A stretch of 64,000 bases of DNA from an uncultured Christensenella sp. (GCA_964418255.1 CAYQKV010000001.1:150901-214900); one strand, 5' to 3'. Shown: positions 8,179 to 30,071, counted from the stretch's first letter. Translations and numbers: made by a program. Notes: generated from the letters alone by a model not told the origin.

Positions 8179-9051
8179 TTATAAATTTTTTCCGAATCTC
8201 ATAAATGCGCTGCAACCGCACGGCAAAGTTATTCCGTCTTCTCCCTTAATTCCGATTTCATCCGCGTCGATTTCTCCGTGAGGAATATCTCCCAATACAA
8301 TTTGTAATATATTTTTCATCGCGCCGGGTTGCAAGCCCGTTGTGTAAGAATTTATCAGATAAAAAGATGGGTCGTCGCTTAAAATTTGTCCGGTGAGTTT
8401 TACGAGAGAAAATATGCCGTCCTCAATTTTCCACGTCTCGCCTTTCGGTCCGCGCCCGTAACTCGGCGGGTCCATAATAACGGCGTCGTATTTCTTCCCT
8501 CTCCGAATTTCCTTTTCCACAAATTTTATACAGTCGTCGACTATAAAACGCGCCTTACTTTCGTCAACGCCGCTCAACGTGCAGTTCTCTTTCGCTATAT
8601 CGCACATAGATTTCGCCGCGTCCACGTGACATACTCTTGCGCCTGCGGCAAGACAAGCGACCGTAGCTCCCCCCGTATAGCCGAACAGATTGAGAACGCG
8701 TACTTCCCTCCCTTCGCTTTTAATAACGTCCGTCATCCTCGCCCAGTTTACGGCTTGCTCGGGAAAAATACCCGTATGCTTGAAATTCATCAGTTTAAGT
8801 TTGAAAGTAAGACCTCTCCAATGAACATAGAAAAAATCGGGAACTTTTTTCATCGTTTCCCACGCGCCGCCCCCGGTTCTGCTTCTTCGATAAACGCCGT
8901 TGAGTCCTTTATATGTATCCAAAGGAAAAGGCGCTTCCCATATAACCTGCGGGTCGGGTCTCAATAAAGTTACGCCGTTGAAACATTCGATTTTTTCTCC
9001 GTTTCCGGTCGCTATCAGTTTATAATCTTTCCATTCAGAGTTGGTTTTCAT
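8179..9051 (-). CDS. Class I SAM-dependent methyltransferase, RlmI/COG1092-like catalytic domain without a PUA domain
   Basis: 290 aa. LNLFGYTGGATVACLAAGARVCHVDAAK (SAM pocket) and IMDPPSYGRG motifs. Its ATG shares one base with the stop of the upstream 923-aa gene (TGATG). Confidence 0.65.
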   Translation of the reverse strand: MKTNSEWKDYKLIATGNGEKIECFNGVTLLRPDPQVIWEAPFPLDTYKGLNGVYRRSRTGGGAWETMKKVPDFFYVHWRGLTFKLKLMNFKHTGIFPEQAVNWARMTDVIKSEGREVRVLNLFGYTGGATVACLAAGARVCHVDAAKSMCDIAKENCTLSGVDESKARFIVDDCIKFVEKEIRRGKKYDAVIMDPPSYGRGPKGETWKIEDGIFSLVKLTGQILSDDPSFYLINSYTTGLQPGAMKNILQIVLGDIPHGEIDADEIGIKGEDGITLPCGCSAFMRFGKNL

Positions 9052-11822
9052 CAGTTGAATATTTTCTTGTCAATATCGGCGACGAGCGAGCCGTATTCGA
9101 GATTAGGTTGCATCTTTTTCAAAACGGAAGCAAACCTTTTCGCTTCGAGATAATTCTCCGCGTTTACCAGTTCTTTGATAAGTTTGACGATAATAAGAGC
9201 AAGTTCTTCCTTTAATTTTTCGTGTATGTCCGCAAAATACGTTATCTTAACGTCGCTCGCGAAACCGTCGCTGTACATACCGATAAGGCGGGTTACCGAC
9301 ATTATTTTCCTGGATAAGTCTTTCTCTTTTTCCGCGCTTTCATAAGTTTTCAAATATGCGTCGTAATCGGTCTCTCCGATTTCTATTTTCATCGTGTATC
9401 TCGAATTCGCGTATTCGAGCTTAAACTGTATTCCTTGCGCAGATAGCGTATTCCTTATTATATTGTTAGTCGTTTTCAGGTTGTTTATCGCGGAAACGTA
9501 AACGTAGTCTCCCCAAAACATTTCTATTATTTCATTCCTGTCTATTCCGCCTTCTCCTTTGAGAACATACAATAAAAACAATTCTTTCGCTTTTTTCGTT
9601 TTCCAGAGAAGTTCGCGACCTCCGACGCTTACGTCGGTATTGCCCATAAATTTGATTTTCAACGCGCCTTCGGTATTTATACGCGCGTTTCTTTCCTTAA
9701 TTTTGCTTTTAATGAAATTAACGTACTCCGTCTCGATTCCGTTTTGTTCTGCGTAAACTATTATAGGATTAAACAGATCTACGCATACGACTTCCACCAT
9801 TTCCATTCCGAAATTCTTGCTTGCGCCTAAAAACTTTTCCACAAGAGTGCGACACGATTTATAGTCGTCGCTCTCGAACATATATATAATGATAATAGCT
9901 GTGGAAATCAACCAGAACGCCGAACGCGAGGACGAGCCGACAACGCATTTACGCGCGTGGAACAAAGCCTTGTCTTTTTCTTTGTTGTGCCAGAAACAGT
10001 ACGCCGCCGCGCCGTGCATAAGCGCAAGATGTTTGCTTTCCGTTATCTCGCACCGTTTAAGATATAATAATACGAGGTCTTTTGCGTATTCGTTCATTCC
10101 CGTTTCCGCGCACATCATCGCTCTTATCGCGATTGCCGTAAGCAAAGTGTTCTCATCGCTCGACGCCTGCTTTACCGCCTCGTTCAGGTAATAAGTTGCG
10201 TCGCTTATTTTATTATGATAAAACTCGGTCAATCCCAGCAAGGCGTATGCGTCGGTAAGATTAGACGTTACGTTGTTGCATTTACTGCCCTCAATTATGT
10301 CCTTCGCCGTTTTTGCGGCAAGCTCCATATCTCCCGCAAAAAAGTACGCTCCCACCATATTAGACGGAATAACGTAAAAAGGAATTAGTTTCTTTATGGT
10401 ATTAAGGTGCCCTATTGCCTTTTTATAGTTTCCCAAATCGAGGTTGCAACCAACAAAGGTCTGCAACATATTGACATACCAAAACTCATCTGAAAATCTC
10501 TTGTCGAGCAAAAAGTTTTCCACCGCGCGAAACCTTTGAACGATTATCGACATATTGAGACTTTTAAGTCCGGCGGCAAGTTTTTCCACAACGGCGGTTA
10601 TCTTGACAAGATAGTCTTCGCCGTATCTCTCAGCTTTATCCCATACATAGTTTCTCGCATATTCCGCGCCTTCCGATTTTTTACCCGAGGAATAAAGCGC
10701 TCTTATCAAACAGCTCGTTATCTGCGGTTCGAGAGGATGCGTTTCGCTTATTTCCGATAAAATTTTGCGAGAAGATTCTTCCGCTTTTTCATACTCGCCC
10801 GCTCCGAGAATTTCGTAAATTATTTTGAAATAGCGCGCGTATAACTGTTCTTCGGTAAAATCGGGGAAGCTAATTTTCCCCACGCACGCGGAAAACTCGT
10901 ACAAGTGGAAAATTTCGCTCTTTTCGTCTACTATTTTTTTCACCGCGTCATTTATCTTTTTCCCGTCTCCGAGGGACAAAGCGATTTTCAATGCTTTAAG
11001 AGCGTTCCTTCCGTTATCTCCGATATAGTAAGCGTACAGCGCGTCGTTGTATTCTTCATCGGTAAAATTCCCGCCCTTTCCTCTTCCTTCCAGAAGCGCG
11101 GCGAGTTTGGAGTTAATGTTATACATATTGCCGCCGGTTTGCATAATCGAACTTCTGTACTTAAGCGACAGTTTATTTATAAGCTCGCTTCCGCCCGGGA
11201 TAACGGAATCGATAAATCCGCTCTCGGCAAATCTATGCTTAGACAGGGCGTGTAAAAATGCAAATTCATCCTCGCTAAGAGGTTCGTCGGCTATACTCTC
11301 GTCGAAATAAGTTGTTTCCGTCTGTTCTTTGCAAATAAGTTTCGGCGTGGCGTCAATAAAAATATTATAATTAAGTTCGAGGAATTTCTCGCTCACCAAA
11401 ACGATTTTCAGGTTCTTCGGACAATTTTTCAGTATCGATTCAATCGTCCTCGTATTGAACCCGCCGCTAACCGTCTCCATATTATCGATTATGAGAAGGC
11501 AGTTATAGTGCAGTTTGGCAATATAATCCAAAACCGCGTTCAGAATGACTATATCTTTCGTAAAATCAAGTTTGCAATAATTGTACTGTTCAAGCGACTT
11601 AGACATTTCCGGGCTGTCTTCGAAAACCTTGTACGCTATGGCAAGCGCAAGCGAATAATCGTTGTCGTATGACGCGTTAACCCAATAAGTCGTTCGGTAA
11701 TTATTCGCGAGGTCCGCAATAAAACCAGCGTTTTCGCCGTCCGTCCTGCTCAATATGATTGTCGAGCTGTTTTTACTCGACATTATTTCGTTTATAAAAA
11801 TACTTTCCGCCGTACTCTTCAT
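9051..11822 (-). CDS. Large regulator: degenerate STAND/MalT-like N-terminus, helical/TPR-like repeats, C-terminal SARP module (OmpR-type winged helix plus BTAD)
   Basis: 923 aa. The C-terminal 220 aa (IKFMGNTDVSVGGRELLWKTKKAKELFLLYVLKGEGGIDRNEIIEMFWGD...NNLKTTNNIIRNTL... then a helical BTAD-like region) fit the SARP pattern. The N-terminus has a Walker-B-like LLIIDNME but no GxxxxGK[ST]. Confidence 0.6.
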   Translation of the reverse strand: MKSTAESIFINEIMSSKNSSTIILSRTDGENAGFIADLANNYRTTYWVNASYDNDYSLALAIAYKVFEDSPEMSKSLEQYNYCKLDFTKDIVILNAVLDYIAKLHYNCLLIIDNMETVSGGFNTRTIESILKNCPKNLKIVLVSEKFLELNYNIFIDATPKLICKEQTETTYFDESIADEPLSEDEFAFLHALSKHRFAESGFIDSVIPGGSELINKLSLKYRSSIMQTGGNMYNINSKLAALLEGRGKGGNFTDEEYNDALYAYYIGDNGRNALKALKIALSLGDGKKINDAVKKIVDEKSEIFHLYEFSACVGKISFPDFTEEQLYARYFKIIYEILGAGEYEKAEESSRKILSEISETHPLEPQITSCLIRALYSSGKKSEGAEYARNYVWDKAERYGEDYLVKITAVVEKLAAGLKSLNMSIIVQRFRAVENFLLDKRFSDEFWYVNMLQTFVGCNLDLGNYKKAIGHLNTIKKLIPFYVIPSNMVGAYFFAGDMELAAKTAKDIIEGSKCNNVTSNLTDAYALLGLTEFYHNKISDATYYLNEAVKQASSDENTLLTAIAIRAMMCAETGMNEYAKDLVLLYLKRCEITESKHLALMHGAAAYCFWHNKEKDKALFHARKCVVGSSSRSAFWLISTAIIIIYMFESDDYKSCRTLVEKFLGASKNFGMEMVEVVCVDLFNPIIVYAEQNGIETEYVNFIKSKIKERNARINTEGALKIKFMGNTDVSVGGRELLWKTKKAKELFLLYVLKGEGGIDRNEIIEMFWGDYVYVSAINNLKTTNNIIRNTLSAQGIQFKLEYANSRYTMKIEIGETDYDAYLKTYESAEKEKDLSRKIMSVTRLIGMYSDGFASDVKITYFADIHEKLKEELALIIVKLIKELVNAENYLEAKRFASVLKKMQPNLEYGSLVADIDKKIFN

Positions 11823-23481: not shown

Positions 23482-23508
23482 AAAAGGACGTCGATTTGAC
23501 GTCCTTTT
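23482..23508. terminator. Bidirectional intrinsic terminator between the RluA-family gene (+) and the spo0A-like gene (-)
   Basis: AAAAGGACGTC-gatt-tGACGTCCTTTT. Confidence 0.85.
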
Positions 23509-23538: not shown

Positions 23539-24273
23539 TTACAAAGATTCAATCATCATTTTATCGGCGACGAGCGCAATAAGTTCTCCGTTCGTCGGTT
23601 TTTCTCCCTTGTTATAAATTTTAATTCCGAAAATCGCGTTTATGTTTTCGATTTTTCCTCTGTTCCACGCGACCTCGATTGCGTGCCTTATCGCTCTCTC
23701 TACTTTGCTCGGCGAAGTTTGATAAATCTGAGCTATCGTAGGATATAATTTTTTGGTAATCGAATTTATCATTTCGGGATACGCAACCGCCAGTTTTACA
23801 GCCTCTCTCAGAAACTGATACCCCTTTATGTGCGGCGGTATTCCCGCACGGATAAAAATACTGCTTAACCTCTCGTCGATATTTCTTATCCCGGCGTTAA
23901 GTTTTACGCTTACCGTCTGCTGTATCATAAATCTAAGCAGTTGAGTACGCATTTCTATAAAAGAATACGGTTTATAAAGGCATACTTCGTGCGGTATCGC
24001 TCCGAGCGCGCCGTCTACTTCGTCCTCCATATTTTTACTCAGAAGAATAATCGAAGCCCCTCTTTCCCGACAGGCAGTCGCTATCTCCTTGCAACGCTCG
24101 AACGCAACGTCAATTACCAGACCCTTTACGTCCGCCGTCCTCAGAATATCCGAAACTTCTTTTGCCGTTTGACAGGCAATAAGATTTATATCGGCGTCGT
24201 CGGCAAAGAATGCTACCGCGTTTGCCGATAACGACCCGTTTGTTTCGCAAAATGCTACGTTAAATTGTTTCAT
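23539..24273 (-). CDS. spo0A: Spo0A-family response regulator with an atypical receiver domain
   Basis: The C-terminal domain is near-canonical Spo0A_C (GIPPHIKGYQFLREAV...SPSKVERAIRHAIEVAWNRG...KPTNGELIALVADK). ATG at 24273 with GGAGG 4 nt upstream. The receiver keeps the D (VIDV), S and K positions, but the acidic pair reads C-E. Confidence 0.85.
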   Translation of the reverse strand: MKQFNVAFCETNGSLSANAVAFFADDADINLIACQTAKEVSDILRTADVKGLVIDVAFERCKEIATACRERGASIILLSKNMEDEVDGALGAIPHEVCLYKPYSFIEMRTQLLRFMIQQTVSVKLNAGIRNIDERLSSIFIRAGIPPHIKGYQFLREAVKLAVAYPEMINSITKKLYPTIAQIYQTSPSKVERAIRHAIEVAWNRGKIENINAIFGIKIYNKGEKPTNGELIALVADKMMIESL

Positions 24274-24324
24274 AGTCCTCCATAAAAACACATTAAAAGT
24301 TTTTATTCTGTGTTTTGTGACAAT

Positions 24325-24353
24325 ATAATAACACATTTTACGTAACTTGTAAA
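24325..24353 (-). promoter_or_regulatory. Sigma-A-type promoter of the spo0A-like gene
   Basis: Minus strand TTTACA-17 nt-TATTAT with TG extension. Confidence 0.55.
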
Positions 24354-24369
24354 CAATTTTTGTACAAAT

Positions 24370-24411
24370 TGTCGATTTAATTTATTTATATGTTGAACAA
24401 ATTATGTCGAA
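24370..24411. promoter_or_regulatory. Two 0A-box-like sites upstream of the spo0A-like promoter
   Basis: TGTCGAA at 24405..24411 is an exact match to the TGNCGAA consensus. TGTCGAT at 24370..24376 matches 6 of 7 positions. They lie 52 and 17 bp upstream of the -35 hexamer. Confidence 0.5.
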
Positions 24412-27501: not shown

Positions 27502-28035
27502 ATGTGTTGTTGTAATTCACAAAACCGTTGTTGTCAGAACCGTCGTTGCTGTTGCAGAAACAGAATAATTTTTCAAAGCGATTCGGTTATTCCCAATACT
27601 ACGGTAATAATTCGTCCCGTCACTCCTGTTCCGACGCCGTTTGCAAACAATGCGCTGTACGCGGTCGGGTCTTCGGGTGCGGTAGCAAATCTTGCCGCAA
27701 TCCCCTTAACCGCAGGCGCAGGCACTCCCGGAACCACTCTCGAAGTGTCGGGAAACGCTCTTATTATTCCCGCGGGAACTTATCAGCTTTCTTTCGGCGC
27801 GCAAGGAAACACCACCACGACTACCGAATCCACGTTTGCCGTTCAATTATACGCTAACGGGCTACCCCTAAGCGGACAGACCGTCTCCGCTAACGGTTCC
27901 ACGACATTGCCATCGTCAGTATCCAAAACTATAATCTATACGATAACCGAACCTACAGCGCTGTCCCTTCACAATGTGTCGGGCGCGACGATAAACATTT
28001 CAAACGCGTTCCTTACCGCGCAGAAGCTTGCCTAA
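27502..28035 (+). CDS. Secreted or surface-type protein: poly-Cys/Arg N-terminus plus a BclA-C-terminal-domain-like (C1q/TNF-like jelly-roll) domain, with no collagen repeats
   Basis: 177 aa. The N-terminus is MCCCNSQNRCCQNRRCCCRNR. The C-terminal blocks ALIIPAGTYQLSF, FAVQLYANGLPLSG and TIIYTITEPTALSLHNVSGATINISNAFLTAQKLA parallel the strand pattern of the Bacillus BclA CTD. GGAGG RBS and own terminator. Confidence 0.6.
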   Translation: MCCCNSQNRCCQNRRCCCRNRIIFQSDSVIPNTTVIIRPVTPVPTPFANNALYAVGSSGAVANLAAIPLTAGAGTPGTTLEVSGNALIIPAGTYQLSFGAQGNTTTTTESTFAVQLYANGLPLSGQTVSANGSTTLPSSVSKTIIYTITEPTALSLHNVSGATINISNAFLTAQKLA

Positions 28036-28403: not shown

Positions 28404-30071
28404 TCACTCCGTAATTTCGGTTTCCGTCATCGCTTCGTCAACCGCTTGCAACTTTTCTTTTACCGCCGTAATGTCTGCGTCGTTTTCTTTAACGATTTTC
28501 AATAGGTTGTCGTCGTTATATCTCAGTGAAAAAATAACCTCGTTCGTCTTTATAAAATCTATAAAAGCCTGCACTTCTGGCAAATCCGCAATCGAAGTCT
28601 CGGGGTCGAGATCATCGACGAAAGCGAGCATATCGTCGAAATTGTACCACACCGATGTGAAGAATTCGGGATTTATCAGAAAGCCTATTTCTGTATTGTC
28701 GATTGCAAGATTTCTGAGAAAATATGCTATCAAAGCATAAACGTCTATCTTCTGCTGTCCGCCGAAATCGTTTGCAAGCAGTCTCGTAGCCAAATCCGAC
28801 AAATCGACGTCAAATCGGAAAATACATTCGGCTTCGCTCTGTCCTTCTTTCTTCAGGAAAACATACGCTACGTTGTTATAAATGTAGAGAGCTCTGTCTA
28901 CCATTTCATCGGTCTCATTGTAATATTCCAAGAATATAAAGTTTTCCTGGTTATTATCCTGAAAAACGCGCGTCGTGACGTTGAAATCGTAATTATTCCA
29001 TACCGCCACATCGTTTTCGTCGTATATCTTAATGGGAATACTCAGCGCGTATATCGCTTCGTCATATCTCTTATACTTTTCGCGTTCCTCGGTCTGAGTG
29101 ACAAAATCTATCGACACGCCGTTTCCGTATATATTCGTTATTTTAACGTCCGCTATATCAACGCCTATTTCAAGCGTATCCGAGTCTATAAGCTTACTTT
29201 CGGAATGAGAAATGTCGATTTTTGCTTTTCCTTGAAGGCTTTGTATTTGATTTCCCGATATGACAAAATTCAAGTTCAGACTGCTTTCGGGCGTATCTCC
29301 TTCTTCCAACTGTTTTACGGTAATACCGAGAACGCTCGCAACGAAACTTTTGATGCTTGCTGTTACTTTCGGGTCTTTGGTTATGCTGCTCAATCCGTTA
29401 CAAAGTTTTGCAAGGGTTTCTTTGAGATTTACGTTCACCGAATATTTGAACTCTTCTTTATTGCTGTTTCTTCTCGTATACCCTATGGGATTATCGTTGA
29501 GCACAACGTAAGAAGCCATAATTCCAGCCACATTGCTCAGTTTCTGCGAATTCATCTGTTCCATCTTATAAGGGTAATAATCCGTCCAGTTGCTTCTGGA
29601 AATGTCGAACCTTACTTTATTGTTCCCTATGGCAAGATAAAGTTCGTCTTTATATATAACCGCCGTAATCAATCGACTTTCGTCGGTAACGCTTTCCTCA
29701 GATGAAAGATTTACTTCGAATATCGCCTTATCCCGAATTTTCGACGGGTCGGCGCAATCGTATTTACCTTTTATCGAAATATAAAAATCGTTGTCGTTAA
29801 TTGTAAAAAGAGCTTTGGCGTCAGCCGTCACCGCGCCTTTCGACTGTACTCTGTCCGCAGAAATCTCATAGGCTATGTTTGTAAATCCCAAAAGGAATTT
29901 CGTATACATATCCTTGTTTTCTATCTGCGAAATCTTCTCCCATCCGTCTTTATTCCCTTGAGTCGGTCCGTCGTTCGGTTCGTCGGGATTTTTATCGACA
30001 CAGGCGCATAGGAAAACAGCAAGCGCAACGGTAAGTATAACGGCAAGCACAAGCAAAAAACGCTTCTTCAT
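28404..30071 (-). CDS. Lipoprotein of unknown function
   Basis: 555 aa. Signal peptide plus lipobox (LAVFLCAC). Strong GGAGGGAGG RBS. No recognisable catalytic motif. Confidence 0.6.
   Translation of the reverse strand: MKKRFLLVLAVILTVALAVFLCACVDKNPDEPNDGPTQGNKDGWEKISQIENKDMYTKFLLGFTNIAYEISADRVQSKGAVTADAKALFTINDNDFYISIKGKYDCADPSKIRDKAIFEVNLSSEESVTDESRLITAVIYKDELYLAIGNNKVRFDISRSNWTDYYPYKMEQMNSQKLSNVAGIMASYVVLNDNPIGYTRRNSNKEEFKYSVNVNLKETLAKLCNGLSSITKDPKVTASIKSFVASVLGITVKQLEEGDTPESSLNLNFVISGNQIQSLQGKAKIDISHSESKLIDSDTLEIGVDIADVKITNIYGNGVSIDFVTQTEEREKYKRYDEAIYALSIPIKIYDENDVAVWNNYDFNVTTRVFQDNNQENFIFLEYYNETDEMVDRALYIYNNVAYVFLKKEGQSEAECIFRFDVDLSDLATRLLANDFGGQQKIDVYALIAYFLRNLAIDNTEIGFLINPEFFTSVWYNFDDMLAFVDDLDPETSIADLPEVQAFIDFIKTNEVIFSLRYNDDNLLKIVKENDADITAVKEKLQAVDEAMTETEITE

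Follow-up and report, generated by a model that had tools for sequence, protein, structure and literature searches.

A Spo0A paralog with a degenerate receiver, probably phosphorylation-independent, as the only Spo0A-type regulator found in a Christensenella genome with sporulation genes

Introduction

The central paradigm of the sporulation decision in Firmicutes is that kinases or a phosphorelay phosphorylate Spo0A in a graded manner. The 64,000-nucleotide stretch of DNA from an uncultured Christensenella sp. analysed here (the window) carries a gene for a 244-aa Spo0A homolog with an unusual receiver domain, which raises the question of whether such a regulator is still switched on by phosphate. 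The first-pass annotation offered two readings, a Spo0A phosphorylated with altered metal chemistry or a phosphorylation-independent paralog. The evidence presented below favours the second over the first and adds the paralogy itself, visible in a 100/100 tree split and in synteny. Judged from its residues, its relatives and its genome, the 244-aa protein is probably a phosphorylation-independent Spo0A.

Results

Structure of the gene and protein

The Spo0A-like gene at 23539-24273 is real. Its frame is intact, its N-terminus reads MKQFNV, and a common start Met is shared by all homologs in the MAFFT alignment; a longer in-frame start at 24336 finds no support, since the same Met begins every homolog. 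The source genome (G000, whose contigs are cited below as C1, C5 and C6) is a 1.78 Mb MAG of 21 contigs, 97.7% complete, from an uncultured gut member of the Christensenellales, and the Spo0A-like gene lies on C1. The gene and its flanking signals are as follows.

23539..24273, minus strand: CDS of the Spo0A-family regulator, 244 aa plus stop, from ORF and translation, with the start fixed by the RBS and homolog N-termini
24276..24281, minus strand: Shine-Dalgarno GGAGGA, 2 nt 5' of the ATG, read from the sequence
24325..24353, minus strand: sigma-70-type promoter-like site TTTACA-17-TATTAT with TG ahead of the -10, 10/12 matches, in a region where the count of such sites does not exceed the shuffled expectation
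24370-24376 and 24405-24411, strand not given: 0A-box-like heptamers TGTCGAT and TGTCGAA, respectively, weak hits of a motif scan
23482..23508, no strand: GC-rich hairpin (AAAAGGACGTC...GACGTCCTTTT) between the Spo0A-like gene and a convergent rluA-like gene, read from the sequence

The hairpin is likely a bidirectional terminator, and the terminator scan did not flag it. The promoter-like site is of the sigma-A type. The exact heptamer TGTCGAA is present 5' of both the Spo0A-like gene and spoIIE; as evidence for 0A boxes this is weak, since a TGNCGAA is found roughly once in every kb of the source genome. We dropped 0A-box enrichment as evidence, the boxes near these two genes being close to chance frequency, and the same motif scan of the source genome found no 0A box upstream of spoIIAA, spoIVA or sigK. 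Three ORFs near the Spo0A-like gene, at window positions 9051-11822 (minus strand, 923 aa), 27502-28035 (plus strand, 177 aa) and 28404-30071 (minus strand, 555 aa), had no Pfam match at E<=1e-5.

The C-terminal part of the protein is a near-canonical Spo0A effector domain, as the first-pass annotation had recognised.

23560..23862, minus strand: Spo0A_C DNA-binding/trans-activation domain, residues 138-238 (PF08769, E 1.6e-38, 131 bits, cut-off 25)

The motifs HIKGY, ERAIRHAIEVAW and KPTNGELIALVADK are all found there. Foldseek aligned the domain with 1FC3/1LQ1 (Bacillus Spo0A-C) at TM 0.86-0.92 and 50-53% identity, and the same entries were its PDB sequence matches (E ~4e-47). Together with the recognition helix, it is near-identical to the canonical a-type relatives described below (67-74%). 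For the Spo0A equivalog model TIGR02875, the 244-aa protein scored 147.3 bits, less than the 200-bit cut-off, and the match covered model positions 141-258 only, that is, the C-terminal part; canonical a-type and b-type relatives scored 265-412 bits, above the cut-off. BLASTP against a canonical relative likewise gave an alignment restricted to the C-domain (67%).

The N-terminal part had no match to PF00072 / Response_reg in Pfam even at E<=1, and its identity had to come from structure and from a profile.

23914..24273, minus strand: N-terminal pseudo-receiver, residues 1-120, (beta-alpha)5 fold, from AlphaFold topology, Foldseek and a genus profile

The AlphaFold2 model of the 244-aa protein, built on 109 homologs, reached a pLDDT of 90.3, with a short and less confident alpha4, and had the predicted topology E4-9/H13-22/E29-34/H37-46/E49-55/H61-70/E74-79/H83-86/E97-100/H105-125. 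Foldseek matched the N-domain to solved receivers (PhoP, Spo0A 5WQ0) at TM 0.74-0.80. When a profile was made from 14 N-domains of the same genus only, four solved Spo0A receivers (9PHZ, 5WQ0, 1DZ3/1QMP) ranked first (E 1e-6 to 2e-5) and generic receivers ranked after them (E >= 3.5e-4). This ranking identifies the N-domain, at the level of sequence, as a descendant of a Spo0A receiver. The total length is 244 aa vs 246-274 aa in the canonical relatives scanned, and the inter-domain linker is short, in agreement with what had been noted at first reading.

The register of the active site was set by MAFFT with 119 homologs and by HMMER against B. subtilis Spo0A 9PHZ, and both agree on the following positions.

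24241..24246, minus strand: E10 (DD1) and T11 (DD2) codons, where the acidic pair is degenerate, from the alignments
24109..24111, minus strand: codon of D55, the retained phospho-acceptor position, from the alignments and present in 50/50 nearest clusters
24085..24108, minus strand: shortened beta3-alpha3 loop V56-E63 in place of IIMPxLDGF, from alignments vs all canonical copies
24034..24039, minus strand: codons of S79 (T position) and K80 (bulky T+1), from the alignments
23968..23982, minus strand: C98 (K-3, non-aromatic) to K101-P102 (retained Lys and cis-Pro motif), from the alignments

In this register FCETN of the 244-aa protein aligns over VADDN, so that DD1 is E10 and DD2 is T11, and the metal-binding Asp is therefore lost. 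The first-pass annotation had read the acidic pair as C-E; its hand alignment was indeed shifted by one residue, the pair being E10-T11, but its view of a degenerate pocket stands, and the shift does not refute a degenerate receiver because the acidic pocket is still not intact. C9 was considered as a metal or redox ligand and rejected: it is a hydrophobic core position before the acidic pair, and canonical copies carry A, V or C there. The replacement of the MPxLDG segment after the acceptor Asp was read correctly at the first pass, as this segment reads DVAFE-----RCKE, a 4-5 residue deletion vs all canonical copies, and consequently the Pro at D+4 and the Gly at D+8 are gone. At K-3, Cys98 stands instead of Tyr/Phe, so that the aromatic residue of Y-T coupling is absent, and T+1 is Lys80. 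D55 (LVIDV), S79 (LLSK) and K101-P102 (YKPY) are kept at the canonical D, T/S and K-P positions, again as first annotated.

Bourret, Kennedy, Tamayo and Foster (2025, PMC12632262) define a pseudo-receiver as a receiver without any one of DD1, DD2, D, T and K, and report that DD2, which contacts the metal directly in true receivers, is the catalytic residue lost most often, typically together with the Pro at D+4, the Gly at D+8, a small residue at T+1 and the aromatic one at K-3. By its aligned residues, the 244-aa protein fits this published definition, with all the typical companion changes included. It is not an aspartate-less receiver (ALR), since D55 is present.

Evolution of the receiver

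We counted residues at the catalytic positions over 93 related protein clusters, comprising the 50 nearest and the next 43.

DD1: E/D in all of the 50 nearest
DD2: T/G/S/P/N/A and never acidic in the 50 nearest; S/P/H/Q/T in the next 43
Acceptor D: present in 50/50 nearest and 40/43 next
T position: S in 39, A in 7 and G in 4 of the 50 nearest; still more variable in the next 43
K position: K in 50/50 nearest; K in 39 and R in 4 of the next 43

Over the 93 clusters as a whole, DD2 was T/S/G/P/H/Q/N/A/R and never acidic. The two domains evolve at different rates. Within the genus of the source bacterium the median identity was 31% for the N-domain and 84% for the C-domain; between families, the canonical copies are 36% identical in the receiver and 74% in the DNA-binding domain. 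In the few unsaturated pairs that gave usable values (dS was saturated in most pairs), omega was 0.055-0.09 in the N-domain and lower, at 0.006-0.03, in the C-domain. These figures indicate that the N-domain is functional, under purifying selection and fast-evolving, with its catalytic constraint partly lifted.

About 20 species of the genus carry the Spo0A-like gene, and its conservation extends over more than 90 protein clusters. When the N-domain by itself was searched across the order, matches came from only 6 of 401 genomes, and such a search is no measure of distribution because the N-domain diverges too fast even within the genus; the 7 matches of a phmmer search of the N-domain against 1.84 billion representatives likewise reflect divergence and not family size.

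The relatives are MAGs labelled Christensenellales, Catabacter or Christensenella, with gut, rumen and digesters as their sources. No family genus examined combines a retained Spo0A_C gene with an intact receiver. All the members examined of the source genus had the degenerate form (in some of them DD2 was R/H, or K was replaced by R), and the other genera were as follows.

Genus g18: DD2 is S
Genus g21: DD2 is K, and Gly stands in place of the acceptor Asp
Genera g19 and g22: almost no catalytic residues left, and g19 is without the acceptor Asp
Genus g23: the sole copy is a 161-aa protein with the DNA-binding domain only (L114, G410)

SpoIVA was intact in g18, g19, g21, g22 and g23. Only g20 among the family genera was without SpoIVA, and Spo0A_C was missing there too; at the order level, G032 had neither a match to the 244-aa protein nor SpoIVA. 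In four genomes of the source genus (G008, G011, G016, G022; one of them 96% complete) SpoIVA was present and no Spo0A_C match was found. These absences are either genuine losses or binning dropouts, the latter conceivable in the MAGs of this genus because the Spo0A-like gene often lies on 3-6 kb contigs. Receiver-less Spo0A_C proteins of 150-168 aa were also seen as second copies in G005, G014, G006 and G007 (L097-L100). One ortholog (L009, G002:C277:391-1110) had an in-frame TAG at the Tyr of KPY, in a MAG 84% complete, and is either a pseudogene or the product of a sequencing error.

Genomic context

Many genomes of the same order have two Spo0A_C genes. A tree of the DNA-binding domains split them 100/100 into two Spo0A clades: the first united the copies directly downstream of spoIVB with the reference proteins of B. 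subtilis and G. stearothermophilus, and the second (a-type) included the 244-aa protein, with the Bacillus references on the opposite side of the split. In the larger genomes both Spo0A types had canonical receivers. By this tree and by synteny, the 244-aa protein is a member of a second (a-type) Spo0A lineage, paralogous to the spoIVB-linked one.

The classical slot downstream of recN-spoIVB was found empty in the source genome, on the intact 141-kb contig C5, where recN (8432-10135) and spoIVB (10214-11245) are followed by unrelated genes. At the place where classical spo0A normally sits there is a 209-aa polytopic membrane ORF (C5:11423-12052), which had no NCBIfam match, and a dacB-like carboxypeptidase gene comes next (recN-to-dacB span C5:8432-13255). 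In other genomes, two ORFs of 115-117 aa with the DNA-binding domain only lie directly 3' of spoIVB (G027:C4:34403-34711 and G036:C3:20262-20585); their families otherwise rely on the a-type, and the two ORFs resemble leftovers of a classical spo0A. In two other small-genome families (G031, G039) the a-types are independently degenerate.

Could a canonical spo0A stand elsewhere in the source genome, with the 244-aa protein as its truncated or pseudogenised neighbour, the case that the first-pass annotation saw as refuting its proposal? The whole-genome profile search found exactly one Spo0A_C match, that of the Spo0A-like gene with its intact frame, and no canonical spo0A beside it. Of the sporulation genes that the same annotation had named for a search, sigF/E/G/K, spoIIAA/AB and a spoIIE-like gene were present. 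SpoIVA, SpoIVB, SpoVAC, SpoVAD, SpoIIAB and YlmC/YmxH scored above their family cut-offs (the SpoIVA gene lies 1 kb before the window start), SigF, SigE, SigG, SigK and SpoIIAA were assigned by best match, SpoIIGA was assigned by its position in an ftsAZ-spoIIGA-sigE-sigG cluster, and the SpoIIE-like gene was full-length. No SigH-like sigma factor was recognised in the source genome; the sigma-type genes besides SigA and SigF/E/G/K were a 189-aa ECF-type gene (C6:99655-100224) and one for a YlxM-like 110-aa protein.

Only two HisKA/HATPase histidine kinases were found in the source genome, each adjoining its own OmpR-type regulator. The other seven HATPase_c matches were GyrB, ParE, MutL, HtpG, SpoIIAB and two small proteins of a hydrogenase-linked cluster. 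Neither an orphan histidine kinase nor a Spo0F-like single-domain receiver was detected in this genome. The stand-alone HATPase proteins at C1:225-229 kb were considered as hidden Spo0A kinases and rejected, as they lie inside a hydrogenase/PHP/DRTGG regulatory cluster. The region C1:223342-228747 encodes a NuoF-like subunit, a 182-aa stand-alone HATPase protein, PHP, DRTGG, a HydS-like sensory hydrogenase and a 142-aa RsbW-like kinase. Per genome, HisKA matches numbered 1-4 in the genus and 0-3 in some small-genome relatives with canonical receivers (none in G040, which has a canonical a-type receiver, and 2-3 in G034 and G036), and kinase number showed no clean correlation with receiver state. 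In G029 (C2:310910-312820, L030), a 384-aa HisKA kinase gene lies directly upstream of a canonical a-type spo0A, and the two are a possible cognate pair for the paralog lineage.

Discussion

Key catalytic parts are lost in the only Spo0A-type regulator of this bacterium, and the sporulation decision therefore probably lies outside the textbook kinase-to-Spo0A route. We consider it rather likely that the a-type paralog with its pseudo-receiver, as the sole Spo0A, drives a retained sporulation programme without His-to-Asp phosphotransfer. The broader proposal, that the whole gut Christensenellales family launches endospores via a phosphorylation-independent paralog that replaced classical spo0A, is made tentatively and may well prove too wide.

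In the mechanism that we propose, the 244-aa protein descends from the a-type lineage, which in larger relatives stands beside the classical spoIVB-linked spo0A, both with canonical receivers. In the family of the source bacterium the classical copy would then have been deleted from the recN-spoIVB-spo0A slot, and the receiver of the surviving a-type would have turned into a pseudo-receiver while the DNA-binding domain stayed almost invariant. The 244-aa protein is predicted to bind 0A-type boxes and to drive spoIIA, spoIIE, spoIIG-sigE-sigG and sigK, its activation bypassing Mg-dependent His-to-Asp phosphotransfer. Its activity might depend on its own expression level, on autoregulation, or on a partner or ligand that engages the N-domain, which is still under constraint and in which E10, D55 and K101 could form a structural salt-bridge network that locks the domain in one conformation.

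The pseudo-receiver signature and the losses of the Asp, the Lys or the whole domain in sister genera speak for the phosphorylation-independent paralog. This independence is nevertheless an inference, since the close clade has D55, K101 and an acidic DD1 without exception; D55 and K101 in 50/50 of the nearest clusters with DD1 always acidic is what would be expected if phosphorylation still mattered, and the retention of S79 also counts against this reading. On the same side stand the missing clean correlation between kinase number and receiver state, the weakness of the 0A-box signal and the fact that the genome is a MAG in 21 contigs. Further, a machine-learning study (PMC12536801) called most Christensenellales MAGs non-sporulating, which counts against phosphorylation-independent sporulation.

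The alternative that survives best, unlikely in our judgement yet deserving serious weight, is that the protein is still a phospho-switch, in which D55 would be phosphorylated with altered metal chemistry, through E10, D55, the backbone and water or another cation, with cross-talk from a paired kinase or acetyl phosphate as the donor. None of the 50 nearest clusters departs from D55, K101-P102 or an acidic DD1, S79 is present, the N-domain is under purifying selection and the source genome has two histidine kinases, all of which fits such a switch. However, DD2, a direct metal ligand in true receivers (PMC12632262), is here freely variable and never acidic, the D+2 to D+8 loop is deleted and T+1 is Lys; the T position is gone in about one fifth of the close relatives and K is replaced by R in some; sister genera without D still keep a Spo0A-like protein and SpoIVA; and both kinases adjoin their own regulators.

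A second alternative, to which we give a distinctly low probability, holds that the 244-aa protein is not the master regulator of sporulation, the a-type controlling something else and sporulation being started by another factor or being defunct, with relic genes. In many relatives the a-type stands beside classical spo0A, and this coexistence implies partly distinct roles; the Spo0A-like gene is unlinked to spoIVB, and the four genus members with SpoIVA and without a Spo0A_C match (one 96% complete) also fit. Against it, the recognition helix and the whole C-domain differ little from those of canonical a-types (67-74% identity) and share 50-53% identity with Bacillus Spo0A. Within the family Spo0A_C and SpoIVA are retained or absent jointly, at the order level G032 has neither a match to the 244-aa protein nor SpoIVA, and the sporulation genes are intact, several above equivalog cut-offs. 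Galperin et al. (2022, bioRxiv 10.1101/2022.02.25.481979) indicate no known sporeformer that is Spo0A-less, and the absent Spo0A_C matches may be binning dropouts, the gene often being on 3-6 kb contigs. Lastly, a decaying pseudogene or an annotation artefact, which the TIGR02875 score of 147 bits below the 200-bit cut-off and the in-frame TAG of one relative (G002) might suggest, is highly improbable and, on the selection and conservation data, already contradicted by omega values of 0.006-0.09 and by conservation in about 20 genus species and more than 90 protein clusters, as well as by an intact frame with an RBS and a promoter-like site and by a confident structure model.

The phosphorylation-independent paralog, if it is what it seems, would place this lineage in apparent contradiction with the paradigm: it retains its spore machinery, has lost classical spo0A and is left with a paralog whose receiver appears kinase-blind. 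If true, commitment to sporulation would proceed without input from any histidine kinase or phosphorelay, the receiver would have taken on a new use as a regulatory module that works without phosphate, or have been frozen in such a state, and the decision could be rewired to another input, for example an expression level, a partner protein or a ligand. Sporulation prediction in gut MAGs often takes the presence of spo0A as a marker, which ignores which paralog is present and whether it can be phosphorylated. The family also offers a natural series of receiver decay, from loss of DD2, to loss of Asp and Lys, to loss of the whole receiver.

Comparison with known systems

Like canonical Spo0A of B. 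subtilis and G. stearothermophilus (1LQ1, 1FC3, 1QMP/1DZ3, 9PHZ), the 244-aa protein has a two-domain plan and a Spo0A_C domain 50-53% identical, the SKVERAIRHAIEVAW recognition helix included; it co-occurs with the sporulation sigma cascade, and the nearest solved relatives of its N-domain are Spo0A receivers. Unlike canonical Spo0A, it is without DD2, the beta3-alpha3 loop and the K-3 aromatic, its T+1 is bulky and its linker is short; it falls below the TIGR02875 cut-off, is not beside spoIVB and belongs to a clade separate from the Bacillus copies, and the source genome is without orphan kinases or a Spo0F-like regulator.

Laboratory alleles of Spo0A, such as the sad67 receiver deletion and the isolated C-terminal domain, have shown that a protein with a crippled or absent receiver still activates sporulation genes without the phosphorelay. 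Receiver-independent activation of the same kind is proposed here for the 244-aa protein and for the 161-aa form of g23; whereas the sad67-type alleles were engineered in the classical gene, this would be a natural variant, family-wide and under purifying selection.

Examples of pseudo-receivers include ChxR, HP1043, BldM/WhiI and C. difficile CmrT. The 244-aa protein resembles the pseudo-receivers of Bourret et al. 2025 (PMC12632262) in the missing DD2, in the companion changes and in being an orphan regulator without a partner kinase, and differs from them in that its output domain is Spo0A_C and that it is the sole family member amid a full sporulation set. We found no description of a pseudo-receiver Spo0A in the open-access and bioRxiv papers searched.

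Two spo0A paralogs were reported in 10 of 118 Spo0A-positive genomes, all Clostridiales, by Galperin et al. 2022 (bioRxiv 10.1101/2022.02.25.481979), and the a-type/b-type pair of Christensenellales is the same kind of situation. Receiver degeneration and loss of the classical copy are not mentioned in the searched passages of that study; here the paralog is the survivor and, by its sequence, appears kinase-blind.
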